Source: Candidatus Woesearchaeota archaeon
Lineage (GTDB): Archaea; Nanobdellota; Nanobdellia; Woesearchaeales; GW2011-AR9
DNA length: 64,000 nt
Direction: 5' to 3'
NCBI GenBank assembly: GCA_016188115.1
Contig: JACPIK010000002.1
Span: forward strand, 1,064,077-1,128,076
Every line of letters begins with the position of its first letter. Position 1 is the stretch's first letter. A program made the position numbers and the translations under genes. A model generated the notes under the pieces. That model saw only the letters and a list, made by a program, of their open reading frames with translations, made no database searches and was not told the origin of the DNA. Positions 28,087 to 55,719 of the stretch are shown in pieces.

Positions 28087-29166
28087 TTAAGTACGATCTT
28101 TCATAAAGAAAAAACCCGCAACTGTAACCAAAACAATTAGGATCATTGCATAATCTGAAAACTCTGGTGTAATCGGCGGACCGTTCATAGAAGTTACATT
28201 GATAGTAAAGTTGCTGCTGCAGACTGTTGTTCCATCAAATGTATTGTTGCTCGGTGTTGCGCAAAAAGACCACGTATCACCAATGTTGGTTTGTTCTGCA
28301 GTTATTTGGTTGCTGTTGTTGTAGAGGGCATAAATCTGATTTGAGGAGAGGGATTTTTTGAAAAAATAAAATTCATCAAGAACCCCATCAAAAGTATTAG
28401 CACTGCCATGGTATCCACCAATGGTGAGGTTAACATTGTTATTTATTGCTCCAGTTGTTGTCGTTGTTGCTGAAGAATTAAATCGTCCGTTCACCCATAA
28501 AGTAAGGTTAGATCTAGCCCGTTCCCAATTAACAACTACGTGATACCATATCCCTGTGCCAAATGAACTTGTAAGACTATAACTTCCTCCTGACGCATCG
28601 TCTCCCGAAATCCAGACTTGTACGTTTCCTGAGTTTGGTCGCACGAAATAGTCTCCCCCTACTCCAAATTTTCCTATGGCATAACCGTTGCTAAAACTTT
28701 CTGGTTTCATCCAGAAGGCAACGACGATATCTTCGTTTGCTTGGATGTCATAAAGTGAGCTATGATTTATGAGGATTTTATCTGTTTCACTAAATTCAAA
28801 ATCAAATGCGCCACGACTATCATTACCACCTGTAGGAAGATAATCTGGTGATCCAAGTCCTGAGAAATTGTATGATCCATTATGCCCATAAGCATAATCT
28901 CGAATTTTATTTTCTATTCCTGTGGTATTACCATCAAACGGCATGTAGAGAACAGGAAATGATGTGCCATTAAGCAACCAATTAAAAATAACTTTACCGT
29001 TACCAATATTCTGCGCATTTACTGTATTTGTAGTTAAGTTTTCATCTCCCACGTTATTTCCATTTGTAGTATTCACATATACAGAATCAATGGATGGGTC
29101 AGCTATCACTGTGATAGAAAGAAAAGCTAAGGCTAATAGAATTAGTATAACATCTCTTGTCCTCAT
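28087..29166 (-). CDS. Secreted N-glycosylation-sequon-rich LamG/ConA-like surface protein with PEF-CTERM-type anchor
   Basis: Signal 'ILILLALAFLSITVIA'; 'FDGNTTG...WMKPES...WYHVVVNWERARSNLTLWVNG...DGVLDEFYFFKKSLSSNQIYALY' jelly-roll motifs; C-terminus 'TPEFSDYAMILIVLVTVAGFFFMKDRT'. Confidence 0.7.
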   Translation of the reverse strand: MRTRDVILILLALAFLSITVIADPSIDSVYVNTTNGNNVGDENLTTNTVNAQNIGNGKVIFNWLLNGTSFPVLYMPFDGNTTGIENKIRDYAYGHNGSYNFSGLGSPDYLPTGGNDSRGAFDFEFSETDKILINHSSLYDIQANEDIVVAFWMKPESFSNGYAIGKFGVGGDYFVRPNSGNVQVWISGDDASGGSYSLTSSFGTGIWYHVVVNWERARSNLTLWVNGRFNSSATTTTTGAINNNVNLTIGGYHGSANTFDGVLDEFYFFKKSLSSNQIYALYNNSNQITAEQTNIGDTWSFCATPSNNTFDGTTVCSSNFTINVTSMNGPPITPEFSDYAMILIVLVTVAGFFFMKDRT

Positions 29167-40443: not shown

Positions 40444-40958
40444 GGTCTCGCCTCAGTTGAGGGTGGTAACGGTGACGTTGGCAAGGATGATGCAGGGCAC
40501 TCTTGCAATGTGATTACTCTCTCTTTTTTATGGATACACACATGCTGTTTTGCTTCAATGAGTCCTTGGTTGGTCTGTCCCACATATCCCACAGGAAGAT
40601 AAAAATGCGCAGTTGTTTGGTCGTATACTCCATCTGTAGTTTGACGCAGCATAATCGTATCGGATGTTAAAATGAGAGTGTATTGGGTTAAATTTGCCGG
40701 ATATTCTACTAACACCTCTCCGGGTGTTGCGACAGCTGCATTTACCAGCATTGCTATATCCTGTGTGATACGTGTTTGCGTAACTGTTTGCGACTCTGCG
40801 AGTTGTGTTGCTATAGCAATGGTAATACCTGCCACAGCAATCACAAAAAGAACTTCAAATATCATTAATGCCGGTTTCACGCTGGCGCGTTTTGATCTTG
40901 GTAAAACAGTGAAGAATGGAATTTGTAATATCCTCAAAATCATGTTTTTAGAGATCAT
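40440..40958 (-). CDS. Pilin-like protein with Glu+5 type-IV-pilin-style N-terminus
   Basis: 'SKRASVKPA|LMIFEVLFVIAVAGITIAIA': Glu at +5 after the putative cleavage site, as in type IV pilins/pseudopilins. Confidence 0.5.
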   Translation of the reverse strand: MISKNMILRILQIPFFTVLPRSKRASVKPALMIFEVLFVIAVAGITIAIATQLAESQTVTQTRITQDIAMLVNAAVATPGEVLVEYPANLTQYTLILTSDTIMLRQTTDGVYDQTTAHFYLPVGYVGQTNQGLIEAKQHVCIHKKERVITLQECPASSLPTSPLPPSTEARP

Positions 40959-40962
40959 CTTC

Positions 40963-41574
40963 CTATTTTACCTGCAAATGAATTTTATGCGAATCTTTTA
41001 CAATTTCAAGAAGCAGACGTCGTTGGTCATGTTCTTCTCGATAATAATGAAATGGCACGATATCTATACCCTCCATAAATTCACAAGACAGTTTAGCACA
41101 ACTATACGTTTGTTGCGTTTTTACTATTCCATTTTCCTGTTCTTGATGTGAAATTTCAAATTTTCGTTCTTGACATAAACAGATACAATCCTTCTCGTTG
41201 CATTGGGAGGGATACTCGTATGCTTCTACAAAATCATAGGGTTCGCTTATTTCCACTCGAGAGGTTCCCCCTGGTCCTTCAACAATCTCGTTATCTCTTT
41301 TTTGTTCTGAATTAATCACCGTTAGTTGGTTTGCTTTAAATGTCACAATCGATGTCTCTTGATCCATAATCAAAATGATCGTTTTAACATCATCTCGCAT
41401 GTTAGGTTGCGCGAGTTGACGAATCGTATTTACCACTTCCCCGAAATTATGTTCTGCTTGATCACTAAGACGAAATACTTTAGAAACACCATAAATTGCT
41501 GTTCCAAAAATAAGTATTGCAAGCACTATAGTTAATAAAAAGTCCATTACAAATGCGTTTTTATGTAATCTCAT
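40963..41574 (-). CDS. Pilin-like protein
   Basis: 'RLHKNA|FVMDFLLTIVLAILIFGTAIYG' N-terminus; Cys-containing C-domain. Confidence 0.45.
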   Translation of the reverse strand: MRLHKNAFVMDFLLTIVLAILIFGTAIYGVSKVFRLSDQAEHNFGEVVNTIRQLAQPNMRDDVKTIILIMDQETSIVTFKANQLTVINSEQKRDNEIVEGPGGTSRVEISEPYDFVEAYEYPSQCNEKDCICLCQERKFEISHQEQENGIVKTQQTYSCAKLSCEFMEGIDIVPFHYYREEHDQRRLLLEIVKDSHKIHLQVK

Positions 41575-41620
41575 CTTTTTTCCTACTCAACAATTTTCCA
41601 TTTATTCTATCACTACTCAT

Positions 41621-41974
41621 TTATTCCACACAGCATTCTGGCTTTGCAGTTTTTCCATCTGGAGCAAACTTTGTTGCAGCAGTTTCTTCTGGACAGCCTT
41701 CAACTTTACCGTTTTCATCACCCGCAATACATACACATCGATCAAAAAGATCCACGACTCTATCTTTATCACAATCGTTACTACCCTCAATGTTTTCATT
41801 AATAACGCCAAACCCTTTATCGCCGCCGCTTTTAAACCAGATAATCAACAACACAAGCACAACCATTGCAATAGTAGCACCAATAATAATCCACCACATT
41901 TCTGATGAACCATTGCGCGTCTTTTTACATTTCTCTTGCTTAAAATAGTTTGAAATAGTTCGCATCAGTATCAC
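41621..41974 (-). CDS. Small membrane-anchored Cys-rich protein ('MWWIIIGA' family, paralog of 44194..44568)
   Basis: 'KKTRNGSSEMWWIIIGATIAMVVLVLLIIWF', then ~70 aa with 7 Cys including 'PECC'. Confidence 0.5.
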   Translation of the reverse strand: MILMRTISNYFKQEKCKKTRNGSSEMWWIIIGATIAMVVLVLLIIWFKSGGDKGFGVINENIEGSNDCDKDRVVDLFDRCVCIAGDENGKVEGCPEETAATKFAPDGKTAKPECCVE

Positions 41975-41993
41975 TCCTTGTGTTTATTCTTTT

Positions 41994-42881
41994 TTATTTT
42001 CCTTCATAATCGGATATCTCTTCACAATTATTTTTCAAAAACGGACCAATTGTTTTTGTTTCTAAATCAACTAGTATAATTGTATCTAGTTCAGTTTCTC
42101 TAAATGCCTTCTCGATAAGGTTCGATCCTCCCTCTAGAGCAACGATTGCCCCTCCAACAACCAAACCTACTCCGCCTGTCGCAAGACCATACACCAAGAA
42201 AGTTGTCCCTCCTACGGCTGCGGCGCCAGAAAGAAAGTTTCCATCTTCTTTCTTTGATTTAAACATAACTGCATACGCATGATCTTCAAGAATTCCTGCA
42301 GGAGTATTTGTTCCTGCTGCAACATTTGTTTCTTCACCAAAAAATCCCATCACCCGACCATTTCCGCCTCCTCGTTGGAAATAATCTAAATATGTCATTT
42401 CTTTATTTTTAGAATAAGGAGTTTCACGTAAGAATTGTTCAAATTCAGAAGGTGAAATTGCGTTTCCTTCTTCCAGATCTTTAATATCATCAATAATCAG
42501 GGAATAACACGTAAAACATCCATTCTCTGACCCAAAGAGAGGAAAATTAGCAAAAACATCATTGTTATATCTTCCTTCACCCATCATATCCCAACAACGA
42601 GCCATATTTTGAGCAATCTGGAGTTGCACATCATGTTTATCTCCTTTTATTTTCTTATCAATGGTTTTACATAAAATGGGTGCGCCTTTAACATCCGAAC
42701 CACCCACTTCTAAAGCCGCAGACATACGCAGAGCAATACTGCTTTTACATAACGTCTCCGCTTGAAGATCATCATTTTTTGCCTGAGCTTTCATCCAGAC
42801 CGTGACAATGACTAAAAAAGCAGCGATGGCTATAATTACGTAAATTAGAAATTGAAATTCACCGCGTTTGCAACGTCCCAT
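41994..42881 (-). CDS. Pilin-like large extracytoplasmic protein
   Basis: 'CKRG|EFQFLIYVIIAIAAFLVIVTV' N-terminus; Gly-rich C-terminal beta segment 'GGTTFLVYGLATGGVGLVVGG'. Confidence 0.5.
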   Translation of the reverse strand: MGRCKRGEFQFLIYVIIAIAAFLVIVTVWMKAQAKNDDLQAETLCKSSIALRMSAALEVGGSDVKGAPILCKTIDKKIKGDKHDVQLQIAQNMARCWDMMGEGRYNNDVFANFPLFGSENGCFTCYSLIIDDIKDLEEGNAISPSEFEQFLRETPYSKNKEMTYLDYFQRGGGNGRVMGFFGEETNVAAGTNTPAGILEDHAYAVMFKSKKEDGNFLSGAAAVGGTTFLVYGLATGGVGLVVGGAIVALEGGSNLIEKAFRETELDTIILVDLETKTIGPFLKNNCEEISDYEGK

Positions 42882-42958
42882 TCTCTCCCTCTTTTTATAG
42901 GTAGAAAGAGAGTGGGCTTTTTGAATTATTCGTTTTTAATGTTCTTGTTTTTCTCAGA

Positions 42959-43888
42959 TTAAGATGAAGAACAGGTAAGAAGATATCCTGTATCCAATGG
43001 TCTCATTCCTTCTTGTGTGAATTGTCGAATTAAATTTCCCTCTTCTGCAAGATCAGCCCCTAGACAATCATCATCAAGACCATCCGGATCATCTCCTGAA
43101 CAAGTGACGTCTCCTACTGTCGTGGGAAAGAAACAAATATGTTTTTTATCTGGAGTATAAAGCAATCCGCCATCTAACAAATTATTTCCTTCATCGTTAA
43201 TCTCTACCAATCCTAATGCAGAGTTCACTGTTGCTCGTATGGCATTTCCGGTAGCATCAAGACCGGAAGAACGAGTGATCGTAAGTGTTTCAACTGGAAA
43301 ATAATGCATTGCGTAATCACGTAACATACTTTCTTTTTTAATAGCAAAGGGCACATCGGGAAATCGGACATATGCTTCATAAAAATTCCCTGCAACATTT
43401 ACCTCTCTTCCATAGGCATCGTTACGTGTTCCGGCAATCACACAAGGTTTTACTCCTTCAATAAACTCATAGGATACTTCTTGAATCCCCCCTACTCCCC
43501 CAAGGACTTTGATACTCATACCTTCTTTTCCTTCTTTATTTTTACCAGAAGCGAGTACTAGCGATGTCCCCTCTTCACCAAGGTCAGGAAATCCCGATTC
43601 ACCTATTCTTTCGTTATATCGAGCAAAACAATACGATTCTTTTGCATTATGCATCAAAGTTATAGTTTTTTTAAGTTGCATAATTACTTTCTCATGTGAA
43701 GAAGGAATGGCAGGTTTTGTTCCTGGAGTTTCACTAACACCAATATCCACAAAATTCTTTGCATTATGTGTGCTATCCTTTGCTTTTGTAAAGCTACCGT
43801 TAGGACCATACGCCCACAAAAGAAGTAAAACCATAATAATTATCAGAACGGCAACACCCACCACCTTTTCAAAAGAATAACTGCTCAT
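42959..43888 (-). CDS. N-terminally anchored extracytoplasmic protein
   Basis: Probable start 'MSSYSFEKVVGVAVLIIIMVLLLLWAYG'; the ORF-track start at 43912 is GTG. Confidence 0.45.
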   Translation of the reverse strand: MSSYSFEKVVGVAVLIIIMVLLLLWAYGPNGSFTKAKDSTHNAKNFVDIGVSETPGTKPAIPSSHEKVIMQLKKTITLMHNAKESYCFARYNERIGESGFPDLGEEGTSLVLASGKNKEGKEGMSIKVLGGVGGIQEVSYEFIEGVKPCVIAGTRNDAYGREVNVAGNFYEAYVRFPDVPFAIKKESMLRDYAMHYFPVETLTITRSSGLDATGNAIRATVNSALGLVEINDEGNNLLDGGLLYTPDKKHICFFPTTVGDVTCSGDDPDGLDDDCLGADLAEEGNLIRQFTQEGMRPLDTGYLLTCSSS

Positions 43889-43889
43889 T

Positions 43890-44042
43890 CTATAACAAAT
43901 CCCCCAGTCCACCCAATAAATCAGTTAAGTCGCCGCCTAACACTGCAAACCACACAATAACAAAGATAAGAAACGCTAAACCTAGAATCATGAGTATTAA
44001 ATGCCATGCTTCCATTCCTTTTTTGTTCACCTTACGATTCAT
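43890..44042 (-). CDS. Tiny pilin-like membrane protein (50 aa), not in the ORF track
   Basis: My translation: MNRKVNKKGMEAWHLILMILGLAFLIFVIVWFAVLGGDLTDLLGGLGDLL. Stop lies 1 nt before the next gene's ATG; ATGA overlap with the upstream small ORF. Confidence 0.4.
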   Translation of the reverse strand: MNRKVNKKGMEAWHLILMILGLAFLIFVIVWFAVLGGDLTDLLGGLGDLL

Positions 44043-44185
44043 GATAATAATTTCCCTCGCAATTTAAACGCATAAAATAGTAACGCCATCCCTAACAATA
44101 AGACCAAAATTATGATCATCAGAGTATTTGGTGTTAACCAATCGCTGCCTTTCTTGGAACGAATAAAAGAAGTGAGAATACCCAT
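44039..44185 (-). CDS. Tiny pilin-like membrane protein (48 aa), not in the ORF track
   Basis: My translation: MGILTSFIRSKKGSDWLTPNTLMIIILVLLLGMALLFYAFKLRGKLLS. 'SKKG' followed by a TM segment. Confidence 0.4.
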   Translation of the reverse strand: MGILTSFIRSKKGSDWLTPNTLMIIILVLLLGMALLFYAFKLRGKLLS

Positions 44186-44193
44186 GCTCTCAC

Positions 44194-44568
44194 CTAAGTA
44201 CAATACATTTTTTTTGCACTAAATTGCACACATTGGCTATCTGCGGATTTTTGCGTGCAAACAGGATCAGTTCCTACTGTTTTACATTCAACCGGCACGC
44301 CTAAACAACACACTTTTGCGTCTCCACCAGCAGCGTTCCCACAATCAAACGCGCCATTCTCTAAAGTACTTCGGGGGCATTCTCCACTCGCAGCGCAAAT
44401 TCCTCCTTTTCCTTCACAATCACTTAACCCTGCTTCTAAGAGATTGGTTTTTCCTGTAAAAAGAACAATAAGAATAACTAAAACAAGAAGAGCAATCACT
44501 GCGCCAATAATAATCCACCACATGGTGGCATCAGCGCGACGTGATTGTAAAATTGATGTCATGACCAA
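44194..44568 (-). CDS. Small membrane-anchored Cys-rich protein ('MWWIIIGA' family)
   Basis: 'RRADATMWWIIIGAVIALLVLVILIVLF', then ~85 aa with 11 Cys ('KVCCLG'). Confidence 0.5.
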   Translation of the reverse strand: MVMTSILQSRRADATMWWIIIGAVIALLVLVILIVLFTGKTNLLEAGLSDCEGKGGICAASGECPRSTLENGAFDCGNAAGGDAKVCCLGVPVECKTVGTDPVCTQKSADSQCVQFSAKKMYCT

Positions 44569-44571
44569 CTC

Positions 44572-44916
44572 CTAATAACGGCAACCGTTTGCTTCACAGT
44601 TTGTTTTGTCATCATTCCAGCTTTTACACCGGCTGATTTCATCACGGAAACGAGATTGGGCAACTTCTTTATCTTCAGGCGTTGCTGCTTGAGAATATTC
44701 AGTTGTATACGTTGATTCACGCGCAACAGTTGGTTTACAAGAACCATAGCTAATCTTCATTTCTGCAAGATCAACATTTCCCTGCGCGCCGACACCTTGG
44801 TTAAAAATTGCGATTCTTCCTGTAAAAATAGCACCTAAAATAACTAAAATGAGGAGTGCTAATACTGCAACAATAATTACATTAATGGACATACTTTGCC
44901 CTTTGTTTGAAAGCAT
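44572..44916 (-). CDS. Archaeal type IV pilin-like protein (class III signal peptide, KGQ site)
   Basis: Likely start at internal Met: 'MLSNKGQ|SMSINVIIVAVLALLILVILGAIF'. The ORF-track 5' extension to 45084 would overlap the divergent gene. Confidence 0.55.
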   Translation of the reverse strand: MLSNKGQSMSINVIIVAVLALLILVILGAIFTGRIAIFNQGVGAQGNVDLAEMKISYGSCKPTVARESTYTTEYSQAATPEDKEVAQSRFRDEISRCKSWNDDKTNCEANGCRY

Positions 44917-45046
44917 ACTCTTCCACCTCTTTTTTTCTACTAACCTGGTAAACGGAAAATATGTATATAAAACTTGCTGTATGTGCGAGTGCTCATTCCA
45001 TTGCTCTGTCCCGCAATAGTTAAATAGTAAAAAGTGTCCTCTCGTT
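44917..45046. promoter_or_regulatory. Divergent promoter region between the pilin-like operon (minus) and the PEF-CTERM array (plus)
   Basis: ~130-bp AT-rich spacer separating the first genes of two oppositely oriented surface-protein clusters. Confidence 0.4.
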
Positions 45047-46153
45047 GTGATGTTTACACAAAGAGGTCGATTTTGGTTACTCATAGTGCTCTTCCTATTT
45101 CTTCTTCCATCTCTTGTTTTGAGCGGTGTTCATTTCGTTGACCCTACTCTGGCAAATAACACCCTTACCTCAAATCAAACTGTGTACATCAATGTTTCTT
45201 TTACAGAACTAAACCTTCAAAGTATAATTTACAATTGGAATAGCACTAATTTCACACTTTTCAACAGCTCAACTGTCTTGTTGTTGAACTTCAACAACCT
45301 TTCAAATTTAGGCGAAAACGGCAGTATTGTCAAAGATGCGAGTCTTTCTGGAAATAATGGCACTACTATTAATGGAAGTACTATCATCACTAATGGAAAA
45401 TATGGTTCTGCGATTACCTTTGATGGTCTAAGCGGATACGCCCGCATTCCTCACAGCACTTCTCTTCAATTTGGAACGGGTGGGTTTTCTATAAATTTTT
45501 GGATGAAAGTCAGCTCAACACCTGTTGTAAGTCAGACCGGACAAATTTTTGGCAAAAGAGTAGCTGGCGGTGGCAACTACGAGCTCCAAATCTCCAATGA
45601 AGTTCTTGTGGCCTACCTTGAAACTCCTACAACTCAGATTACTTCTACTTATAACATTAGCCAACATCTCGGAGAATGGATTTTTGTGACACTCAATCGT
45701 AATAATACTGCAGCAGGAATCTACGTTAATGGTTTGTTAAATACATCGGCAACATCAACCCAAAATATCAACAGTGTCGCACCATTAGAACTAGGTCGTG
45801 ATGGGGATGGAAAAAACGAGTATTTCAACGGGTCAATCGATAATTTTATGATTTTCAATCGTGGTCTTACTCACGCTGAAATCTTGGAGTTATACTTCTC
45901 AAATTTAGAACGACATAGCAATGAAAGTTGGACTTTTTTCATTAACCAAAGCCAAAATACCACTGGCGTTCTTGCCAACGGAACATACACCTATCAATTT
46001 TTTGCAACAAATAGTTCTGGCACTACTTCAAATACAACACAATGGCAAGTACGTATTGGACAACTGCTCGATGTTCCTGAATGGAGTACTCTAGGTATGG
46101 TAGTAATACTCATTATCACTATCTCTAGCTTCTTTCTACGTAAAGAAACATAA
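45047..46153 (+). CDS. Secreted LamG/ConA-like surface protein with variant PEF-type C-terminal anchor (paralog 1 of 5)
   Basis: Signal peptide; conserved N-module 'FVDPTLANNTLTSN..YINVSFTE'; 'FDGLSGYARIP...WMKV'; 'NGSIDNFMIFNRGLTHAEILELY'; C-terminus 'VPEWSTLGMVVILIITISSFFLRKET'. Confidence 0.7.
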   Translation: MMFTQRGRFWLLIVLFLFLLPSLVLSGVHFVDPTLANNTLTSNQTVYINVSFTELNLQSIIYNWNSTNFTLFNSSTVLLLNFNNLSNLGENGSIVKDASLSGNNGTTINGSTIITNGKYGSAITFDGLSGYARIPHSTSLQFGTGGFSINFWMKVSSTPVVSQTGQIFGKRVAGGGNYELQISNEVLVAYLETPTTQITSTYNISQHLGEWIFVTLNRNNTAAGIYVNGLLNTSATSTQNINSVAPLELGRDGDGKNEYFNGSIDNFMIFNRGLTHAEILELYFSNLERHSNESWTFFINQSQNTTGVLANGTYTYQFFATNSSGTTSNTTQWQVRIGQLLDVPEWSTLGMVVILIITISSFFLRKET

Positions 46154-46240
46154 AACCAGTCCAAGAAAAATTGTTCGCATGCATTTTCTCACTCGGAGCT
46201 CTTCGCAACTATTAAATACCTCATTTTTCTTATCTATTGT

Positions 46241-47356
46241 ATGGTTGTAGTGAAGAGGTTTATTTCTAATACGTTGTGTTTTATTCTTCTATTTTGTTTT
46301 ACCTCATTAACCTCCGCAACAGTAACTCCTACATTCATTAATCCTACGCCAGCCAACAACACAGTAACATCAAACACTTCTATTCTCATCAACATTTCTT
46401 TTACAGAACCATATCTTACCAATGTGACTTATATTTGGAATGGAACCAATTATACTCTCTATGATAACTCTACTCTTCTTTTCTTAATGGGTTTCAACAA
46501 TTTCTCTGGTATTGGTGATAACACCACAACTGCTGTCGATGTTTCTGCTCGCGCCCGCAATGGCACAATTACGGGAGCAATCTTCAATACGACTGGTCGT
46601 TACGGTGGCGCGTATAGTTTTATGGCAGGAAATCAATATATCCAAACTCAACGTAATTTCATGAACAACCTCTCCACCTTTTCTATGGCTGGTTGGGTTT
46701 ATGCAGAAGCAACAGGGAACAGAATTGCTTTTTTTGGTCAAAATGATGCTATCGAGTTTGGTTTCATTGATGCTAACACCATCACGTTTTATACTAGTGA
46801 TGCCTCAAGTGCTTCTTGGACAATTAACAGTACTCTCTTTCCTCTTAATGCGTGGAATTTCGTCGCCGTTACTGCAAATAATAATACTAATCCCTCTCTT
46901 ACAATTTATATTAACGGGATTGCCCAAGCAACCGGAGGCACTGTTACAGATACATTCGGCAATTCTGTTTATAATTTTAGCATCGGTGGATGTGTTTGGG
47001 ATCCAACAGGCAATAATTTCACTGGAATGATTGATGAAGTGATGGTTTTTAACCGCACACTCACTCCTGCAGAAGTGTATCTCACATATAGTTCTAATCT
47101 TTACAAATATGCTAATGATCAATGGTATCTCTCTATTAATCAAAGTCTTAATGCAACGCAAACTCTTGTCAATGGCACTTATACCTACCAAGTTTTTACG
47201 CAAAATATCTCCGGAACTTCATTAAACACAGAACAACGTACAGTTATCATCGGACAGCTTCCAGGTGTACCTGAATTCGGCGAGTGGGCAATACTACTTA
47301 TTTTAATCTCTACTGTTCTGGGGTACTTTCAAATGAAAAAAGCTAATTTGTCTTAG
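46241..47356 (+). CDS. Secreted LamG/ConA-like surface protein, PEF-CTERM (paralog 2)
   Basis: 'FINPTPANNTVTSNTSILINISFTE'; 'DEVMVFNRTLTPAEVYLTY'; C-terminus 'VPEFGEWAILLILISTVLGYFQMKKANLS'. Confidence 0.75.
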   Translation: MVVVKRFISNTLCFILLFCFTSLTSATVTPTFINPTPANNTVTSNTSILINISFTEPYLTNVTYIWNGTNYTLYDNSTLLFLMGFNNFSGIGDNTTTAVDVSARARNGTITGAIFNTTGRYGGAYSFMAGNQYIQTQRNFMNNLSTFSMAGWVYAEATGNRIAFFGQNDAIEFGFIDANTITFYTSDASSASWTINSTLFPLNAWNFVAVTANNNTNPSLTIYINGIAQATGGTVTDTFGNSVYNFSIGGCVWDPTGNNFTGMIDEVMVFNRTLTPAEVYLTYSSNLYKYANDQWYLSINQSLNATQTLVNGTYTYQVFTQNISGTSLNTEQRTVIIGQLPGVPEFGEWAILLILISTVLGYFQMKKANLS

Positions 47357-47413
47357 GCACTTAAGACCACTCTTCCCGTAAAGGTTAAATATCCTACGAA
47401 CAGCGTTTTATTC

Positions 47414-48577
47414 ATGAATGGACAAAAGAGGAGTAGATTGTATACGTTAAGTAGTATCATCCTTTTTTGTCTCGCGTTCTCATTTACTGTTTATGCTGAC
47501 CAAAGTCCTACCTTTATTGATCCTACTTTTGCTAACAACACGCTAACCTCCAACACATCAATTGTAGTTAATGTTTCCATCACAGAGCCTCTTTTAGGCA
47601 ACATAACCTATAATTGGAACGGCAGTAATTACACATTGTACAGCGAAGAACTCGTAGTTATGTTTAATTTTGATAACCTTTCAGGTGTGGGAGAGAATTA
47701 CAGTGGAAACCGCAGTAACATTTTCGATGCATCACGCAATCGCAACAATGGAACTTGGATCACTAATCTCACCAATGAGACTATCAGAAGTAATTGGACT
47801 GCGCAGGGCAGGCATGGTGGTGCCATTGGTTTTGATGGTATTGATGATGTTGTGTACATCTCTAGTATTCCTGGCTTAAGCAATGCTACTAGCATAACAT
47901 TTTCCTACTGGGTAAAATTCCCTGACAATGCGACAAGTTATGACTTGAGTGGTTTTGTCAAAAGTGGCAGTGGTCCTGCAATCCGTTTAGGTCGAAGTAG
48001 TACCGGTGGTATTTTCATCAACCCTGGAACCCATACCGATATTTCTATTTCTCATTCCATCAACAACAAAAACCAATGGTATTTCCTTGCGTTAACTTCA
48101 GCTGTTGGAAAAAACTGGACCGTCTACGTTGATGGTAAAAATATTTCCAGCGGAACCAATGGTCTTCCTAGTGTTGGATTTGCGGGCGATACCCCATTTG
48201 GCATCGGTGCAACACTTGAACCAATTTCAACGGTATGGGAAACCAGGGGGTTCATCGATGAGCCTCGTATTTACAACCGCAGTTTCACACCAGAGGAGAT
48301 CTACACCCTTTACATCTCAAATTTCCAGAAAGTAACAGAGTCGCAATGGTACTTTTCCGCTAACCAAAGCCTCAATGCAACGGATGTTCTTGTGAACGGA
48401 ACGTATACCTATCAATTTTTTACTAAAAATACGACCGGCACGCAAAGCAGTACCGAGCAACGAACCATTCACATTGGCCAACTACCAGCAGTTCCAGAAT
48501 TTGGTGAGTGGGCAGTTTTACTGATTCTAATCTCAACTGTTGTAGGATATTTTCGGATGAAGCAAAGGACAGAATAA
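47414..48577 (+). CDS. Secreted LamG/ConA-like surface protein, PEF-CTERM (paralog 3)
   Basis: 'FIDPTFANNTLTSNTSIVVNVSITE'; 'FDGIDDVVYIS...WVKFP'; C-terminus 'VPEFGEWAVLLILISTVVGYFRMKQRTE'. Confidence 0.75.
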   Translation: MNGQKRSRLYTLSSIILFCLAFSFTVYADQSPTFIDPTFANNTLTSNTSIVVNVSITEPLLGNITYNWNGSNYTLYSEELVVMFNFDNLSGVGENYSGNRSNIFDASRNRNNGTWITNLTNETIRSNWTAQGRHGGAIGFDGIDDVVYISSIPGLSNATSITFSYWVKFPDNATSYDLSGFVKSGSGPAIRLGRSSTGGIFINPGTHTDISISHSINNKNQWYFLALTSAVGKNWTVYVDGKNISSGTNGLPSVGFAGDTPFGIGATLEPISTVWETRGFIDEPRIYNRSFTPEEIYTLYISNFQKVTESQWYFSANQSLNATDVLVNGTYTYQFFTKNTTGTQSSTEQRTIHIGQLPAVPEFGEWAVLLILISTVVGYFRMKQRTE

Positions 48578-48578
48578 G

Positions 48579-49661
48579 ATGGTATTGGCTTCTCAACAAT
48601 CATTAAATCGGTTCTTACTTTTTTCATTATTTGTAATTTTATTATCAAGTCCAAGCATCGCATCAGTCTCTTTTGTCGATCCAACTATGTCAGACAATAC
48701 TCTTAGTTCAAATACAAGCATCATCATTAATGCAACTATTACAGATGCAGCATTGCGTGAAGTGATGTATGTTTGGAACGGTTCCAACTTCACGTTCTAC
48801 AATAATAGTATCTCATTGATGTTTAATTTTGATACTTACACTCAACTCAACGACACCAGTAAATTTCATAGAAATGCTTCCTATATGGGTGATGCTGCCT
48901 ACACAGCTTCAGGAAAATATAATGGAGCCGTTGCATTTGATGGAAATGGAGATTATATCCAACTCAACACAACAACGGGGATTCCTGTAGGTAACGACCT
49001 GTATACAATTTCAGCTTGGATTAATCCCACCATCTGTAATGGTGGGTATGGTATTGTGGGATGGGGAAGTTATGGGTCCTCAAACCAAGCGAACGCATTT
49101 CGTCTTGCAACAGGTTGTTTTATCCTCAACTACTGGTGGGCTAATGACATCACTTCTACCGGCACAGTTGCAATCAATCAATGGAATCATGTCGTAGCGA
49201 CATTTAATGGTTCAACTCGTTCGCTTTATATTAATGGGCGCTTAGACAAATCCGACACCCCCAGCGGCCACAACGTAGTTGTTGTAGATCCCGTTACAAT
49301 TGGAAAGACTTACTCCAATGAATATTTTAATGGAACCATTGATGAAGTTCGCATCTGGAACTGCTCCTTCAATTCTACAGAGATCTATGAACAATATGTT
49401 TCTAATTTGCGCCAGTATGATACGGACAAATGGGAACTGCTTGTTAACCAAAGTAAAAACGCTACTGCCGTTTTAGACAACGCAACCTACACCTATCAAA
49501 TCTTCACATACAACACGACCGGCAGCCAAAGTAGTACAGAACAACGTAGTTACACCTTAGGACAAATTCCCATCACCCCAGAGTTTGGTGAATGGGCAAT
49601 GTTACTCATCCTCATTACGGTCATCAGCGGTTTTTATGGTCTTAAACGGCATTCAGAGTAA
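48579..49661 (+). CDS. Secreted LamG/ConA-like surface protein, PEF-CTERM (paralog 4)
   Basis: 'FVDPTMSDNTLSSNTSIIINATITD'; 'FDGNGDYIQL...WINP'; 'DEVRIWNCSFNSTEIYEQY'; C-terminus 'TPEFGEWAMLLILITVISGFYGLKRHSE'. Confidence 0.75.
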   Translation: MVLASQQSLNRFLLFSLFVILLSSPSIASVSFVDPTMSDNTLSSNTSIIINATITDAALREVMYVWNGSNFTFYNNSISLMFNFDTYTQLNDTSKFHRNASYMGDAAYTASGKYNGAVAFDGNGDYIQLNTTTGIPVGNDLYTISAWINPTICNGGYGIVGWGSYGSSNQANAFRLATGCFILNYWWANDITSTGTVAINQWNHVVATFNGSTRSLYINGRLDKSDTPSGHNVVVVDPVTIGKTYSNEYFNGTIDEVRIWNCSFNSTEIYEQYVSNLRQYDTDKWELLVNQSKNATAVLDNATYTYQIFTYNTTGSQSSTEQRSYTLGQIPITPEFGEWAMLLILITVISGFYGLKRHSE

Positions 49662-49692
49662 GGATTAAATACTCTCATCTGCTCTTCTCATC

Positions 49693-50799
49693 ATGGACCA
49701 AAAGAGGATAATGTTCACTATTTTAGTCTTTGCGCTGTATTCTTATTCTGGTCTTGCTACTGTTACTTTTATTGACCCAACACCTTCCGATGCAACCCTC
49801 TCTTCCAACACCAGCGTGATCATTAATGTATCCATCACAGAATCAAATCTAAGTTCCATTACTCATGTGTGGAATGGTACTAATTTCACTTTTTATAACA
49901 GCTCATTGGTTCTCCTTCTTAATTTTGAACCGTATAGGGGAATGAATGACTCTTCCTCATCAGCTCTGAGCCCGAGCATTTTTGGCGATTCATCCATCAA
50001 TTCCAGCGGGGGCAAGTATGGTGCATCGCTTACTCTTGATGGAACAGGCGACTATCTAACTATCCCTCGAGTAATCACAGACGATTTCACACTTGCAGCT
50101 TGGATAAATAAAAGAACATCATTAACCAATAATGGTGCTTGCAGTAATGATCAATGGTATTGTGGGTTTGGCATTCTTGACGCAGAAGTAGCGGGTGTAA
50201 GCAATGATTTTGGATTAGGAGTGAAAGATAACAAAATTATTTTTGGAATCGGAAATGCGGATACCAGTATCCTCTCCACGACAACACTCAATTCAGATCA
50301 GTGGTATTTTGTCGCCGCAACTCGTGAAAAATCTACTGGTGCTATGCGAATTTATGTGAATGGTATTAATGAGACTCAAGCAACAGGAAATACTAATTCT
50401 TTAACTTCAAACGCCAACATCTATATCGGTGAAGATGGTAGTGGAAACCGAGGGTTCTTTAATGGTCAATTTGATGATGTCCAAATTTACAATCGTACTC
50501 TCTCTAATGCCGAAATCGCCGAGCTCTACCTGCAAAACATCTGGCGACATAATGCGACACAGTGGTATTTCTATGTTAATCAAAGTCAGAATGCCACCAC
50601 AGTATTATCAAATGGTACGTATACTTACCAAATTTTTACTACAAACACGACAGGAAGTGGGAGCAATACAGAACAACGCACCTATACTTTAGGTCAACTC
50701 CCAACTGCTCCTGAATTTGGTGAGTGGGCGATACTGCTTATTTTAATCTCAACAGTTGCAGGCTATTTTCACATGCGCACCAAACAACAAAACGACTAA
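49693..50799 (+). CDS. Secreted LamG/ConA-like surface protein, PEF-CTERM (paralog 5)
   Basis: 'FIDPTPSDATLSSNTSVIINVSITE'; 'LDGTGDYLTIP...WINK'; 'DDVQIYNRTLSNAEIAELY'; C-terminus 'APEFGEWAILLILISTVAGYFHMRTKQQND'. Confidence 0.75.
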   Translation: MDQKRIMFTILVFALYSYSGLATVTFIDPTPSDATLSSNTSVIINVSITESNLSSITHVWNGTNFTFYNSSLVLLLNFEPYRGMNDSSSSALSPSIFGDSSINSSGGKYGASLTLDGTGDYLTIPRVITDDFTLAAWINKRTSLTNNGACSNDQWYCGFGILDAEVAGVSNDFGLGVKDNKIIFGIGNADTSILSTTTLNSDQWYFVAATREKSTGAMRIYVNGINETQATGNTNSLTSNANIYIGEDGSGNRGFFNGQFDDVQIYNRTLSNAEIAELYLQNIWRHNATQWYFYVNQSQNATTVLSNGTYTYQIFTTNTTGSGSNTEQRTYTLGQLPTAPEFGEWAILLILISTVAGYFHMRTKQQND

Positions 50800-51311: not shown

Positions 51312-51911
51312 ATGACAACTTTAACTATTGATGATGCCATATTACTTGACTTAATTGCAGGAAAATTCTTGAAAGAGCTATCGCCAGAACAAAGAGCACG
51401 GGTTACTGAGGCTCTCGAAGCACGAGCTATGTGGGGCGATGGACCACGAACTGTACAAAAGATTCAAATTACTAACCCAGAACACTCTAGCTTATTTTCT
51501 ACAGGTGAATCATGGCATGCGTATGCTCAATTATTACATCATGGTCGAGACGGTGTCCATCAAGTTGTTGAAGATCCCCAAAGAGCCCGATACAGTGCAA
51601 AATTAAATCTCTCTTTCGTGAATCCTGTGAATCCAACAGAGTTACGAGCAAACTTAGCTCTATATCGTGCTGATCAACCCCAAGCATGGCAAGTTTCTAT
51701 TCAAGATAGAATCGGTGTTCTCACAATTGACGGAACCAGTTTCTATTGCGGCGATCACAAGGGTAGTAATCTCACTACTCTTACAAATTTTATTAAAGGG
51801 CCTGAAATTGCTGATAAAGGGAACCGACCGTATATTCGTGGTGAATACTTAAATCGACCAATAGGAACTCTAAATGATCCCATCTTTCTACCACCTCGAC
51901 CGGTGAAATAA
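51312..51911 (+). CDS. Hypothetical protein
   Basis: 199-aa ORF with higher local GC; no motif recognised. Confidence 0.3.
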   Translation: MTTLTIDDAILLDLIAGKFLKELSPEQRARVTEALEARAMWGDGPRTVQKIQITNPEHSSLFSTGESWHAYAQLLHHGRDGVHQVVEDPQRARYSAKLNLSFVNPVNPTELRANLALYRADQPQAWQVSIQDRIGVLTIDGTSFYCGDHKGSNLTTLTNFIKGPEIADKGNRPYIRGEYLNRPIGTLNDPIFLPPRPVK

Positions 51912-52909: not shown

Positions 52910-53299
52910 ATGTGTATCGGAAAATATACAAGTAAATATAGCGAACACTTTTACGTTGTGTTTCGTGTAGTTATTGGTCTCATGTTCTTCATGCATGGAT
53001 TCTTAAAGTTCAGCGCAATGAATGTACCTGTTGCAAGCTTATTTGGCGTCGCAGGCATTGTAGAAATTCTTGCAGGTCTTGGCATTTTAGTAGGTATGTT
53101 TAGCCGTCTTGCAGCTGTTGGTGGTCTTGTGACTATGGTTGTTGCATTGGCAACTCAACATTTCCCTAAAGGCATTAATCCTTTAGCAAATGGCGGAGAA
53201 CTTGCAGTACTCTATCTTATTGCATTCTTGATAATCTTGGGCAAAGGCAACGGCAAAGCAAGTCTTGAGAAAGCTTTACTTAAGAAAGAAATGTGTTAA
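52910..53299 (+). CDS. DoxX-family membrane protein
   Basis: 'FRVVIGLMFFMHGFLKF', 4 TM helices; AGGAGG 8-10 nt upstream of this ATG. The longer ORF-track version from 52661 overlaps the CobW gene. Confidence 0.7.
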   Translation: MCIGKYTSKYSEHFYVVFRVVIGLMFFMHGFLKFSAMNVPVASLFGVAGIVEILAGLGILVGMFSRLAAVGGLVTMVVALATQHFPKGINPLANGGELAVLYLIAFLIILGKGNGKASLEKALLKKEMC

Positions 53300-53406: not shown

Positions 53407-53850
53407 ATGAAAACAACTCAGATCATTATTGGAATTATTGCTGTTCTCTCATTATTTCTCGTAAGCTGTAACAGTACCAAATACGATGAATTTGCACAAT
53501 GTCTTACTGATAATAAAGTAGTCATGTATGGTGCGTATTGGTGCGGTCATTGCGCAGAACAAAAACGCATGTTTTCTGACAGTTTTGAAAAAGTAACCTA
53601 TGTTGAATGTTCTTTACCTGACAACGCTGGTCAAACCCAAGTGTGTCAAATGAAAAACATCACTGGCTATCCTACCTGGGAATTTGCTGACGGTTCAAGA
53701 GTAAGTGGGAAACAAGAATTTGAGACATTGAGTGCAAAAAGCGGCTGTCTTCTTCCGGATGGAACCTTAGGAACTGATCAACGACCCACAGTTTCCCAGC
53801 TACCTCAAGAACCGATCCCTATGCCAGATATTGCGGCTCAAACAGAATAG
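53407..53850 (+). CDS. Secreted thioredoxin-fold lipoprotein (WCGHC)
   Basis: Signal plus lipobox 'LFLVSC', 'YGAYWCGHCAEQK' CxxC thioredoxin motif. Confidence 0.65.
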   Translation: MKTTQIIIGIIAVLSLFLVSCNSTKYDEFAQCLTDNKVVMYGAYWCGHCAEQKRMFSDSFEKVTYVECSLPDNAGQTQVCQMKNITGYPTWEFADGSRVSGKQEFETLSAKSGCLLPDGTLGTDQRPTVSQLPQEPIPMPDIAAQTE

Positions 53851-53885: not shown

Positions 53886-54452
53886 ATGGGAATTGTTGAA
53901 GACGCACGGGTGTATGCTGTTTTAGAAATTGAAAAAACCGGCTTACCTAATATAACACATTTTGAAATTAGTGAGAAGAAAGCAATCCAACTCGCTAAAG
54001 TACTCAAAGCAGATGAAAAAATCGTACAAATCGGTGTCTACTTCATGGATTTAAAGTTAGGACAAGCAATGAAAGAAAATAGGCTCACAGATCACATTCC
54101 TATGGCAGTCACAGCGGCACAAGAATTTTTCAAAGTTCATAAGATTTCCAAACCTAATCAAGAAAAAATCATTAACTGTATTCAAGCCCATCACAAAGAA
54201 ATTCCATTCACTTGTATTGAAGCAGAAATTTGTGCTAATGCTGATTGTTATAGATTTATCCACCCAAAAGGATTTTTTGCCTATCTCACTATTCTTGGAA
54301 AAAGATACTCAAATCTCAATGAGTGTTTAGAACAAGCAGAAAGAAAAATGGATGAAAAATACAAAACCCTTTCCCTACCTCTATGCAAAAAAGAACTAGC
54401 TCCTTACTATAAAAATCTAAAACAATACCTCAAAGATGCACGCTATCTCTAA
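53886..54452 (+). CDS. Hypothetical protein, possible HD-domain phosphohydrolase
   Basis: Weak His/Asp pattern ('ITHFEI', 'QAHHKE', 'CANADCY'); low confidence. Confidence 0.3.
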   Translation: MGIVEDARVYAVLEIEKTGLPNITHFEISEKKAIQLAKVLKADEKIVQIGVYFMDLKLGQAMKENRLTDHIPMAVTAAQEFFKVHKISKPNQEKIINCIQAHHKEIPFTCIEAEICANADCYRFIHPKGFFAYLTILGKRYSNLNECLEQAERKMDEKYKTLSLPLCKKELAPYYKNLKQYLKDARYL

Positions 54453-54955
54453 TTCTTCTTTATTTCACACACTTTCGTCACAATCTTCTTCGATAAAACA
54501 TACCAAGAATAAATCAACAGCCCTAATCCTAATACGGCTAATTCTACTCCTTGAAATGGCAGCCATGCCAATAATCCCGTCAACCCCAACAAACTAAATA
54601 TTCCCAAAGCACAGGATGCGCACCCAGGTGCAACCACCCCTGCAATCACACCAACGACTCCCATCCCCATTTGTTCACGTACTTGACGACGCAATAAAAA
54701 AATCATGTACGTTACAACAATACCTGTCAGGATCGAAACTAAAGACAAAAACAAATACGAACTCAACGGCATCAAATCCACCGAACCCCAGACACTCCAA
54801 AAAGCAAACACAACATCACCCTCAAAAATCAAGCGGTAATTCTTTATCAAAACATTAAACCAATACGCAGCAATACTTATCGCTACCGTTAAAGCAATAT
54901 ACTTCCAAGAGCCATACACTTCACGCGCAGCAGTAAAAAATTTGTGAAAAATCAT
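54449..54955 (-). CDS. Polytopic membrane protein with 'PGCASC' motif
   Basis: 4-5 TM segments; 'VVAPGCASCALGIFSLLGL'. Confidence 0.35.
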   Translation of the reverse strand: MIFHKFFTAAREVYGSWKYIALTVAISIAAYWFNVLIKNYRLIFEGDVVFAFWSVWGSVDLMPLSSYLFLSLVSILTGIVVTYMIFLLRRQVREQMGMGVVGVIAGVVAPGCASCALGIFSLLGLTGLLAWLPFQGVELAVLGLGLLIYSWYVLSKKIVTKVCEIKKN

Positions 54956-54978: not shown

Positions 54979-55719
54979 TTATTCAGCCAATGCTTGTTCA
55001 ATGACTTGTTGGAATGCAGCGAATGGTTGCGCTCCGCTAATCAAACGTCCATTCACAAAAAATGCAGGAGTTCCTTGTACGCCAGCAGCGCTTCCATCTT
55101 GCATATCTTTGGCAACTTCTTGTTTGATAGCAGGATCAGCACGGCATTTTTCCCATGTTGCGCTATTCAAACCAATCTCTTGTGCCCATTGTTTAAGAGT
55201 AGCTTCGCTAAGCAATTCTTGATTGGCAAAGATTTTGTCGTGAAGTGCGTAATATTTTCCTTGTTTTCCAGCACACTCAGCTGCAATTGCTGCAGGTTCA
55301 GCCATAGCATGGAAAGGTAGAGGATAATCTCGGAAGATTAATTTTACTTTTCCAGTATCAATGTATTGACTTTTAAGCTGTGGTAGAGTTTGTTGATAGA
55401 ATCGACCGCAGAATGGGCATTGGTAATCGCTAAATTCCACAATGGTAACTGGGGCATCTTCATCCCCAAGAACAGCATCAGTATCAACTAATTTTTCCAT
55501 ATTAACAACGGGAGCAGGTGCTTCTTCCCCAGGAGCTAAGGGTACATTTGGCACATTAGCAACACCAGCGCTTCCTATTGATCCTACCTTAAACGCGATA
55601 AAGAGCAACAGCACGATTTGAATCACTGCTGCGCCAATTAATAATTTATGCATCGTTGATGTTTTTTCACCATGAACATGTGTTTCTCTATGATGAGTTT
55701 CTTGTTTTATATCTTCCAT
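54979..55719 (-). CDS. DsbA-like thiol:disulfide oxidoreductase, membrane-anchored
   Basis: N-terminal TM 'LLIGAAVIQIVLLLFIAF', 'VEFSDYQCPFCGRFYQQ' CPxC active site, DsbA-fold C-terminus. Confidence 0.75.
   Translation of the reverse strand: MEDIKQETHHRETHVHGEKTSTMHKLLIGAAVIQIVLLLFIAFKVGSIGSAGVANVPNVPLAPGEEAPAPVVNMEKLVDTDAVLGDEDAPVTIVEFSDYQCPFCGRFYQQTLPQLKSQYIDTGKVKLIFRDYPLPFHAMAEPAAIAAECAGKQGKYYALHDKIFANQELLSEATLKQWAQEIGLNSATWEKCRADPAIKQEVAKDMQDGSAAGVQGTPAFFVNGRLISGAQPFAAFQQVIEQALAE

Follow-up and report, generated by a model that had tools for sequence, protein, structure and literature searches.

How proteins are displayed and retained at the surface of Woesearchaeota is the question raised by a locus in Candidatus Woesearchaeota archaeon (GenBank assembly GCA_016188115.1). 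Within a 64,000-nucleotide (nt) stretch of contig JACPIK010000002.1 (forward-strand positions 1,064,077 to 1,128,076), referred to here as the window, five related genes lie head to tail. Each encodes a laminin G (LamG) protein with a secretion leader and a C-terminal tail composed of a PE[F/W] motif, a transmembrane (TM) helix, and a basic end. A sixth, distant paralog is found elsewhere in the window. We consider it likely that the six genes encode N-glycosylated, lectin-like surface proteins whose tails are sorted by a divergent, DPANN-specific system of the PEF-CTERM/ArtC type.

The DPANN archaea are mostly uncultured, tiny, and probably host-dependent, and surface display is a key unknown of their biology. 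If the proposal is correct, their sorted surface proteome would include giant beta-helix, FG-GAP, SBBP, and LamG proteins in addition to the five-gene lectin array, and once a sorting tail is paired with its enzyme, anchored DPANN surface proteins could be listed by a simple sequence rule. A preliminary description of this DNA had interpreted the array as archaeosortase or exosortase substrates with diversifying ligand-binding cores. This interpretation is partly supported: the tails and the linked enzymes described below resemble a working PEF-CTERM/ArtC system, yet the tails and the one enzyme scanned stay under the curated cutoffs of its models.

Five tandem LamG genes and a distant sixth paralog

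The array occupies positions 45047 to 50799 and consists of five co-directional open reading frames (ORFs) on the plus strand, p1 to p5, with products of 360 to 387 amino acids (aa) and intergenic gaps of 87, 57, 1, and 31 nt. This agrees with the initial count of five paralogs of roughly 360 to 390 aa, spaced 1 to 87 bp apart. At the protein level, p2 to p5 are 34 to 39% identical to p1. The identical locus was also assembled from runs SRR12113419-21.

All five products share one layout, given here for p1 (45047..46153; MBI2573386.1, annotated from the ATG at 45050): a Sec-type leader, a putative immunoglobulin (Ig)-like N-half, a LamG domain at aa 127-279 (nt 45425-45883; 77.1 bits against Pfam Laminin_G_3), a putative Ig-like C-half, and the tail DVPEWSTLGMVVILIITISSFFLRKET. 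In p2 (46241..47356; MBI2573387.1), the LamG domain spans aa 130-279 (nt 46628-47077; 82.6 bits) and the tail is GVPEFGEWAILLILISTVLGYFQMKKANLS. It spans aa 142-296 (nt 47837-48301; 66.4 bits) in p3 (47414..48577; MBI2573388.1; tail AVPEFGEWAVLLILISTVVGYFRMKQRTE), aa 121-269 (nt 48939-49385; 89.6 bits) in p4 (48579..49661; MBI2573389.1; tail ITPEFGEWAMLLILITVISGFYGLKRHSE), and aa 116-276 (nt 50038-50520; 87.2 bits) in p5 (49693..50799; tail TAPEFGEWAILLILISTVAGYFHMRTKQQND). For p5, gene callers chose an alternative start at 49711 (P0001, 362 aa). The sixth protein, to which the preliminary description had alluded, is encoded on the minus strand at 28087..29166 (p6; MBI2573360.1, 359 aa), with a Sec-type leader, a LamG domain of 66.7 bits, and the tail ITPEFSDYAMILIVLVTVAGFFFMKDRT. 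All six proteins clear the Laminin_G_3 (PF13385) cutoff of 27.6 bits, with p1 to p5 aligning over profile positions 1-151, and the proposed LamG/ConA-like identity of the cores is thereby established. The NCBI name of p1 to p4 and p6 is only "LamG domain-containing protein."

As read from the sequence, a basic n-region opens every array protein and is followed by a hydrophobic stretch and small residues, which corresponds to the shared Sec signal described before. No twin arginine, lipobox cysteine, or class III motif was read in the leaders of p1 to p5. Potential N-glycosylation sites are abundant: the five proteins contain 15 to 22 N-x-S/T sequons each, against 7 to 9 expected from composition-preserving shuffles (z scores of 3.2 to 6.5). 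This two- to threefold enrichment bears out the high sequon density reported initially, and 11 sequon columns are common to at least four of the five copies. The remaining ORFs of the window have about 0 to 2 sequons per 100 aa. Judged by this density, the array proteins are presumably heavily N-glycosylated.

The tails resemble the PEF-CTERM sorting signal

At their extreme C termini, all six window proteins have PE[F/W], a hydrophobic stretch of about 20 residues, and a Lys/Arg end; the tripartite ending pointed out earlier is therefore present throughout. The third motif residue is Phe in four array tails and in p6 and Trp in p1. The p1 tail (46070..46150) combines PEW (PEWSTLG) with a TM helix and a basic end and scores 49.6 bits in a local tail hidden Markov model (HMM), a score that is not independent because this tail was among the sequences used to build the model. 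The other array tails share PEFGEWA and a TM helix and differ in their basic ends: MKK in p2 (47264..47353), RMKQR in p3 (48488..48574), LKRH in p4 (49572..49658), and MRTK in p5 (50704..50796). The p6 tail (28090..28173, minus strand) reads PEFSDYA, TM helix, MKDR and is the nearest of the six to the canonical DPANN form defined below. When p6 is compared with the array, the tail is the best-conserved segment, with an identity of 0.44 versus 0.23 to 0.25 for the C-module and LamG. In the local HMM, generic TM anchors reach at most 7 bits, in contrast to 26.6 and 29.2 bits for two PE tails that had not been used to build it.

PEF-CTERM (TIGR03024) and its enzyme ArtC (TIGR03762) were described by Haft, Payne, and Selengut in 2012 from methanogens and anaerobic methanotrophic archaea (ANME), according to the passages of PMC5244752 and PMC9723798 that refer to that work. 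The same passages, both citing Haft 2012, pair PEF-CTERM with ArtC, so that the pairing given in the preliminary description was correct. For relatives with canonical tails, TIGR03024 is the top sorting model, aligned over positions 1-25 of 25, with 12.5 to 19.4 bits for whole proteins and 21.2 and 22.9 bits for two isolated tails. The p6 protein scores 12.5 bits as a whole and 18.8 bits as an isolated tail. The curated cutoff is 23 bits, and because the canonical scores fall just under it, annotation is silent on these tails. In a positive control, a synthetic PGF tail reached 51 bits against TIGR04126, which indicates that the scan can detect short sorting signals.

The tail recurs on unrelated proteins of Woesearchaeota and Nanoarchaeota

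A sorting signal is expected to be portable, and portability was assessed with a 29-position tail profile that comprises the motif, the helix, and the basic end and leaves out the family-specific GQLP lead-in. An exhaustive search of 1.84 billion representative proteins returned 60 matches at an E value of ≤1e-3. Five were the window's own proteins, among them p2, matched at residues 343-369 of 371. Among the 55 other matches, all but one have [V/I]-P-E-[F/W/L]-x-x-[Y/W/F]-A at 24 to 31 residues from the C terminus, and these 54 also have two to five Lys/Arg among their last eight residues. Their third motif residue is Phe in 45, Trp in 8, and Leu in 1, and the canonical form of the tail is AVPEFSDYAILLILITVVGGFFxMK(R/K)K. 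The profile was built from window sequences, and motif conservation among its matches is consequently circular in part; the C-terminal position and the diversity of the passengers were not imposed by the search and are free of this circularity.

The passengers are indeed diverse, and the tail proteins range from 50 to 2,487 aa. Pfam scans of 40 tail proteins gave Laminin_G_3 in 14, NosD in 4, Glug and Beta_helix in 3 each, and FG-GAP and SBBP in 2 each; Big_7 and CBM96 are among the single matches, and several of the 40 have no Pfam family. The named tail proteins come from Woesearchaeota or Nanoarchaeota metagenome-assembled genomes (MAGs) and are called "NosD," "LamG," "beta-helix," or "hypothetical," never PEF-CTERM. 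Since the curated models miss the tail by about one bit, NCBI names stay at "LamG," "NosD," or "hypothetical."

Portability extends to a single genome. P0078, an SBBP propeller of 942 aa with the tail DIPEFSDYAILVILVSVVGGFFYMKRHEEKE (MBI2573197.1; HYV86_05030), is encoded on the same 1,471,151-bp contig as the window, where the tail is thus carried by six LamG proteins and a propeller. The counterpart of P0078 in the nearest relative, nzgw60, has a DIPEWSDYA tail. Two further searches were empty: the tail-only profile gave nothing at an E value of ≤10 in a word-indexed database of 5.8 billion proteins, for which the query is too short, and a metagenome DNA-pattern scan for PEFGEWA gave at least 120 matches, among which none of those listed continued in frame into a TM helix and a stop codon.

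Several additional features of tail-bearing proteins were observed. A domain of about 100 aa (GNANLTINDSAEGS...F.A.Y.N...G...CNV.FDD...YNYTK..GF...G.H.WNVTC) occurs in 13 of 39 longer DPANN tail proteins (P0076, P0079, P0089, P0091, P0094, P0095, P0108, P0112, P0114, P0117, P0119, P0123, and P0127), where it starts 99 to 112 residues before PEF; it matches no Pfam family, and the window proteins do not have it. Tail-bearing genes are repeatedly found in tandem, as with three SBBP genes at locus L187 and three LamG genes at L004. At L200:3-15314 (plus strand), two neighboring giant beta-helix proteins, one of at least 2,594 aa and one of 2,487 aa, both end in a VPEFSDFA tail. A 1,862-aa multi-cassette protein (L058:3-5591, plus strand) has an IPEFSTIG...KKLRKKK tail after a Cys-rich linker of the DxDxDG type (thrombospondin type 3-like). 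Because this tail follows the linker and not a cassette, it behaves as a separate module. On another DPANN contig, an IS605 OrfB/Cas12f-like TnpB gene (L199:12183-13475, plus strand) lies about 6.5 kb from a gene for a GLUG-repeat protein with a PEF tail.

Exosortase-family genes adjoin tail-bearing genes in related genomes

If the tails are sorted, an enzyme should accompany them. In three of ten tail-protein neighborhoods (197 kb in total), a gene of the Exosortase_EpsH family (PF09721) lies within 10 kb. At L187/L188, a 303-aa PF09721 gene (L187:16473-17384) lies within about 70 nt downstream of three tandem SBBP genes, each ending in ETVPEFSDYAMFAILV... and thus in the PEFSDYA form. At L197/L198, a 308-aa PF09721 gene (L197:7007-7933) lies 2 kb upstream of P0103; directly 3' is a 100-aa PEFSDYA ORF ending in GGGGAVPEFSDYAIILILVVTIGGFVVMKKKG, and giant NosD and FG-GAP proteins are encoded nearby. 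In a MAG labeled Woesearchaeota (L201), a 305-aa PF09721 gene (L201:4814-5731) is located 4.3 kb upstream of the gene for the NosD protein P0075. Assuming one randomly placed enzyme gene per genome of 1 to 1.5 Mb, the Poisson probability of at least three such genes in 197 kb is about 4e-4 to 1e-3.

The three enzymes are 25 to 49% identical to one another, contain seven to nine hydrophobic segments, and have the motifs G-x-x-C-S-G-[VI]-[DE]-S, N-x-[LI]-R, and L-F-H-x-x-x-G-W in common. We assign the CSG, NxxR, and FHxxxGW elements to the Cys, Arg, and His positions known in the exosortase/archaeosortase family. Curated subfamily models were scanned with the L187 enzyme alone. It scores 52.5 bits against the TIGR04178 signature (cutoff, 23). 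Among the subfamily models, ArtC (TIGR03762) fits best, at 34.4 bits over positions 32-274 of 274 and with a cutoff of 100 bits, nearly level with the XrtE/VPEID exosortase model (33.3 bits). No solved structure matches the linked enzymes. Within the literature searched, the few papers naming archaeosortases or exosortases alongside DPANN, Woese-, Pace-, or Nanoarchaeota were general reviews or treated other subjects, and none of those read described such an enzyme from these lineages.

As a mechanism, we propose that the proteins would be exported by Sec and then transiently retained in the membrane by their C-terminal helix. A divergent ArtC-like archaeosortase, which this genome would be expected to encode, would recognize [V/I]-P-E-[F/W/L] at the outer face of the helix, accept the variant array tails (PEFGEWA and PEWSTLG) as well, and cleave near PEF, removing the helix and the basic tail. 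The ectodomain might then be transferred to a lipid or another envelope anchor, by analogy with ArtA and PGF-CTERM in Haloferax.

Several results weigh against this proposal. The five array proteins, scanned whole or as isolated tails (PEFGEWA, PEWSTLG) at an E value of ≤10, match neither TIGR03024 nor any other NCBIfam C-terminal sorting model; their tails deviate from the canonical PEFSDYA form, and no tail tested, from the window or its relatives, attains 23 bits against TIGR03024. The formal PEF-CTERM membership proposed at the outset is consequently not borne out (p6, 18.8 bits; relatives, 22.9 bits at most). Within the window's own genome, the enzyme search covered the 64-kb window and 23 kb around P0078, out of 1.47 Mb. 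As the preliminary description had stated, the window holds no exosortase or archaeosortase gene: Pfam and NCBIfam scans of all multi-TM ORFs were empty, as was a six-frame search with a profile of the three DPANN enzymes. There is none within 10 kb of P0078 either, and seven of the ten tail-protein neighborhoods are without an enzyme gene. The proline, acidic, and aromatic residues at the helix start could also equal ordinary interfacial anchor residues, and in many LamG cassette proteins of other DPANN genomes (see below) the C terminus is a plain TM anchor that has no PE motif.

Most of these observations would be expected if the tails were plain type I TM anchors and PE[F/W] a conserved interfacial or juxtamembrane feature that a lineage-specific group of surface proteins has inherited, with no sortase-like processing in this organism. 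The fast change of the tail between orthologs (30 to 48% identity) and the long cytoplasmic tails of some cassette proteins from other DPANN genomes would also fit. We nevertheless regard plain anchoring as unlikely. It does not account for a motif held at a fixed C-terminal distance on unrelated passengers in many genomes, for the tail being the segment best conserved between p6 and the array, for exosortase-family genes adjoining genes with the same tail far above chance expectation, or for the wide gap in tail-HMM score between generic anchors and independent PE tails. Of the archaeosortase-type signal first suggested, the portable tail and the enzyme linkage in three related genomes stand; what falls away is agreement with the curated cutoffs of tail and enzyme.

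Two ORFs of the window were considered as a hidden archaeosortase. The first (32885-33481, plus strand; 198 aa, 6 TM segments, no family match) was rejected because it has no cysteine. The second (54449-54955) has a CxxC motif and a DsbA-like neighbor and more likely belongs to a disulfide machinery. The enzyme was also sought around 62 related loci that encode the LamG cassette. A Pfam scan of 26 flanking multi-TM ORFs showed no Exosortase_EpsH among the families listed (25 of 31), and the more sensitive HMM of the three DPANN enzymes found none in 817 kb around these loci.

Compared with PEF-CTERM/ArtC, the DPANN pair shares the tripartite ending, the occurrence on several unrelated secreted passengers per genome, TIGR03024 as the best sorting model from end to end, and, for the L187 enzyme, ArtC as the nearest subfamily. 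It differs in that the DPANN tails all score below the TIGR03024 cutoff and the L187 enzyme far below that of ArtC, in an extended [V/I]PE[F/W]SDYA signature specific to Woesearchaeota and Nanoarchaeota, and in a lineage that is DPANN and not Euryarchaeota. ArtA of Haloferax volcanii, acting on PGF-CTERM proteins, is the sole experimentally studied archaeosortase (PMC6098224). In this template, a membrane enzyme that depends on Cys and Arg cleaves Sec- or Tat-exported substrates carrying motif, TM helix, and basic tail, lipid is attached covalently, and the substrates are heavily glycosylated (PMC6098224). The pre-tail domain found in 13 of 39 DPANN proteins (ANLTIxDSxEGS...WNVTC) is reminiscent of the PGF-pre-PGF domain. 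In contrast, the motif is PGF instead of PEF or PEW, the window tails do not match TIGR04126, which detects the control PGF tail, and processing by ArtA has been studied in Haloferax, whereas the DPANN proteins are known here from sequence.

It seems somewhat probable that Woesearchaeota and Nanoarchaeota own an archaeosortase subfamily, ArtC-like yet outside the curated models, that reads the signal [V/I]PE[F/W]SDYA-TM-K/R and sorts much of the surface proteome involved in host contact. Such a subfamily would extend archaeosortase biology beyond Euryarchaeota and Thaumarchaeota and would suggest one new NCBIfam model for the signal and one for the enzyme.

The LamG core is part of a cassette shared with giant DPANN proteins

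What the proteins might bind is suggested by their cores. The solved structure closest to the LamG core by sequence is 4qvs_A (E value of 1.7e-21, profile positions 97-288), followed by clostridial toxin Hc-N, arabinanase, and pentraxin jelly-rolls; sialidase carbohydrate-binding modules (CBMs) are also among the relatives. Binding of glycans, or of other ligands from a host or substrate, is the most likely role of the LamG cores, by analogy with TafC, toxin Hc-N, pentraxins, and sialidase CBMs. The Protein Data Bank entry 4qvs_A ("S-layer domain-containing protein"), Hc-N, arabinanase, and pentraxins are thus the ligand- or carbohydrate-binding jelly-rolls nearest the core, but none has a split Ig-like frame or a C-terminal sorting tail.

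A degenerate-pattern search of 185,579 species genomes recovered the 62 related loci mentioned above, nearly all from Woese-, Pace-, or Nanoarchaeota MAGs. In these, N-module, LamG, and C-module form a tandem cassette, present in up to 17 copies per protein, with protein lengths from 2,000 to over 6,800 aa. The giant proteins share the Ig-N/LamG/Ig-C cassette with the window proteins (HMM positions covered, about 27 to 344). The window genes, in contrast, encode single-cassette proteins of about 370 aa, every one with a separate leader and tail and, p4 excepted, a promoter-like element; a PE tail is missing from most giants, although the L058 protein has one. A few of the 62 cassette contigs bear labels of other phyla. 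The DPANN-type Ig/LamG cassette contigs L005, L006, L007, L010, L022, L023, L024, L027, L031, L040, L042, and L045 have odd taxon labels, such as "uncultured Methanosarcinales," "Paceibacterota," "Omnitrophota," or "Saccharibacteria," and are probably mis-binned or mislabeled DPANN contigs.

The preliminary description had treated the N- and C-modules as separate units. An alignment of 100 complete cassettes from 50 DPANN loci gave a consensus that scores 149.7 bits against Laminin_G_3. When LamG is deleted from it, the fused N and C consensus matches the Ig-like Pfam domain Big_13 (PF19077) at 28.2 bits (cutoff, 27) over profile positions 19-101 of 102, whereas the permuted C-then-N fusion matches only the last third of the profile with its C-half. 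In the giant proteins, the consensus C-module (...GTYTYQAFAKDTSGNLNSTEQRTITID) passes directly into the next N-module (...INFTSPTPANNT...INVS...WNGTNYT). The most economical reading of these alignments is a single Ig-like sandwich, split into the N- and C-modules by a LamG domain that sits in a loop, in place of two independent modules. Counting against it, the split Ig depends on one consensus match just above threshold, and two AlphaFold runs (mean predicted local distance difference test [pLDDT] scores of 52.5 and 57.6) are confident for the LamG core alone, with Ig-like parts below 50. No Big_13 match was obtained for individual window proteins in the Pfam scan, and a profile-based search for homologs, which brought back mainly generic LamG proteins, left the Ig-half alignment no deeper.

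A LamG core is also found in TafC (NF052521), the tip adhesin of haloarchaeal Tat-fimbriae (PMC11821415), which raises the idea that the array encodes fimbrial or pilus tip adhesins, carried on a filament made by the divergent pilin-like cluster upstream. All six window proteins give weak NCBIfam matches to TafC, and both are archaeal surface proteins in which laminin-G is the presumed adhesive module. Moreover, the array adjoins about 11 small genes whose N termini, (K/R)G followed by a hydrophobic helix, resemble class III signal peptides. The TafC scores, though, are 13 to 43 bits against a cutoff of 410 and concern the LamG part only; with no twin arginine in the proteins, membership in the TafC family was rejected. 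The window proteins have Sec-type leaders in place of a Tat or class III signal, no donor-strand N-domain, and a C-terminal membrane tail, which filament subunits lack. In addition, the region upstream of the nzgw60 array has no detectable homolog of the pilin-like cluster. We therefore judge a pilus tip role very unlikely and retain sorting of the proteins by their tails as the preferred reading.

The small genes themselves (38368-44913, minus strand, divergent from the array) encode proteins of 49 to 405 aa without Pfam matches, each with a single N-terminal hydrophobic helix. In at least five, (K/R)G stands just before the helix, for example NKG/QSMSINVIIVAV, KRG/EFQFLIYVII, and KKG/TVAFLIVFVIF, which resembles class III (type IV prepilin) signals, and several are Cys-rich (6 to 10 Cys). 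No pilus ATPase or platform gene adjoins the cluster.

The array paralogs are old and individually conserved

Mean pairwise identity among p1 to p5 is 0.55 in the N-module, 0.56 in the C-module, 0.48 in the tail, 0.30 in LamG, and 0.21 in the signal peptide. The conserved ends and diverged core that had been emphasized are therefore real, but the contrast is only moderate. The preliminary description had taken this pattern to reflect diversifying surfaces or antigenic variation. In a contingency array of this kind, recombination or positive selection would diversify the central region of the copies and so vary the exposed surface. Tandem genes with diverged cores between conserved ends are in keeping with such an array, as is the different gene content in relatives. 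The nearest relative, nzgw60 (locus L004), has a three-gene array in the order p2-p1-p3 (66, 76, and 74% identity) in place of five genes, and the RibL-like, CobW, DoxX, and thioredoxin genes come after it as they do in the window; p4, p5, and the ORF at 51312-51911 are missing.

Substitution patterns point the other way. Synonymous differences among p1 to p5 are saturated in every segment (proportion of synonymous differences [pS] of 0.71 to 0.83), and no two copies share an exact DNA match of more than 17 nt, which leaves neither gene conversion nor a substrate for cassette recombination; between the array genes, neither invertible nor repeat elements were seen. Gene conversion as the source of the conserved ends was rejected given this saturation. 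With a proportion of nonsynonymous differences (pN) of 0.30 in the Ig halves against 0.50 in LamG, the ends are instead kept by purifying selection. Between orthologs, the LamG core is the best-conserved part (70 to 84% identity; pN of 0.11 to 0.18), comparable to flanking housekeeping genes (pN of 0.09 to 0.18), while the tails keep the pattern alone. As far as these alignments tell, this is the signature of old, specialized paralogs with a pattern-constrained sorting signal and not of diversifying surfaces. Antigenic variation is thus scarcely credible for this array.

The PEW motif of p1 had been regarded as a sign of decay or different sorting. Trp occurs at this position in 8 of 54 other tails, and it exchanges with Phe between orthologs: the p1 ortholog of nzgw60 (71 to 76% identical overall) has PEF, and the p2 ortholog (P0006/L004_1_1026; 66% identical) has a PEWGTIG tail. 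PEW is thus a normal variant and not a product of decay. The p3 ortholog (P0003; 74% identical) ends in a PELGEYA tail.

The age of the paralogs, purifying selection on LamG, and the TATA-like elements before four of the five genes make specialized glycan- or ligand-binding adhesins the best reading of the array. They probably serve contact with a host or substrate and do not form a variation system. The array is thereby recast as five old, individually conserved lectin-like adhesins.

Promoter-like elements precede four of the five array genes

The sequence TTAAATA, which resembles an archaeal TATA box, occurs 14 times in the window on both strands. Four occurrences, all on the plus strand, lie 27 to 29 nt 5' of array starts: 45020..45026 (27 nt upstream of p1), 46212..46218 (29 nt upstream of p2), 47385..47391 (29 nt upstream of p3), and 49665..49671 (28 nt upstream of p5). 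Such spacing would fit a TATA box driving a leaderless mRNA. The element before p5 favors the start at 49693 over that at 49711. No promoter-like element of its own was found for p4, which starts 1 nt past the p3 stop codon and is therefore probably co-transcribed with p3. With elements before p1, p2, p3, and p5 but not p4, the array probably comprises four transcription units.

Neighboring genes of the window

The 64 kb yielded neither a tRNA nor an Rfam RNA. The ORF at 51312-51911 (plus strand, 199 aa, no family match) lies between the RibL-like FAD synthase and CobW genes and is a lineage-specific insertion, given its absence from the otherwise syntenic nzgw60 locus. An extracytoplasmic disulfide machinery appears to be encoded 3' of the array, comprising a DoxX gene (about 52913-53299), a secreted thioredoxin-like protein (53407-53850), the 4-TM CxxC protein at 54449-54955, which has no family match, and a DsbA/Thioredoxin_4 protein (54979-55719). 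Other membrane proteins of the window include an M50 site-2-protease homolog with a PDZ domain (5292-6467, plus strand) and a YdjM-family membrane hydrolase (36192-36656, minus strand). The surroundings are archaeal housekeeping genes, all on the minus strand, for PEP synthase (19165-21447), a RadA/Rad51 recombinase (26477-27490), an RPA-like OB-fold protein (37323-38312), and a HerA-like helicase (58341-60161).

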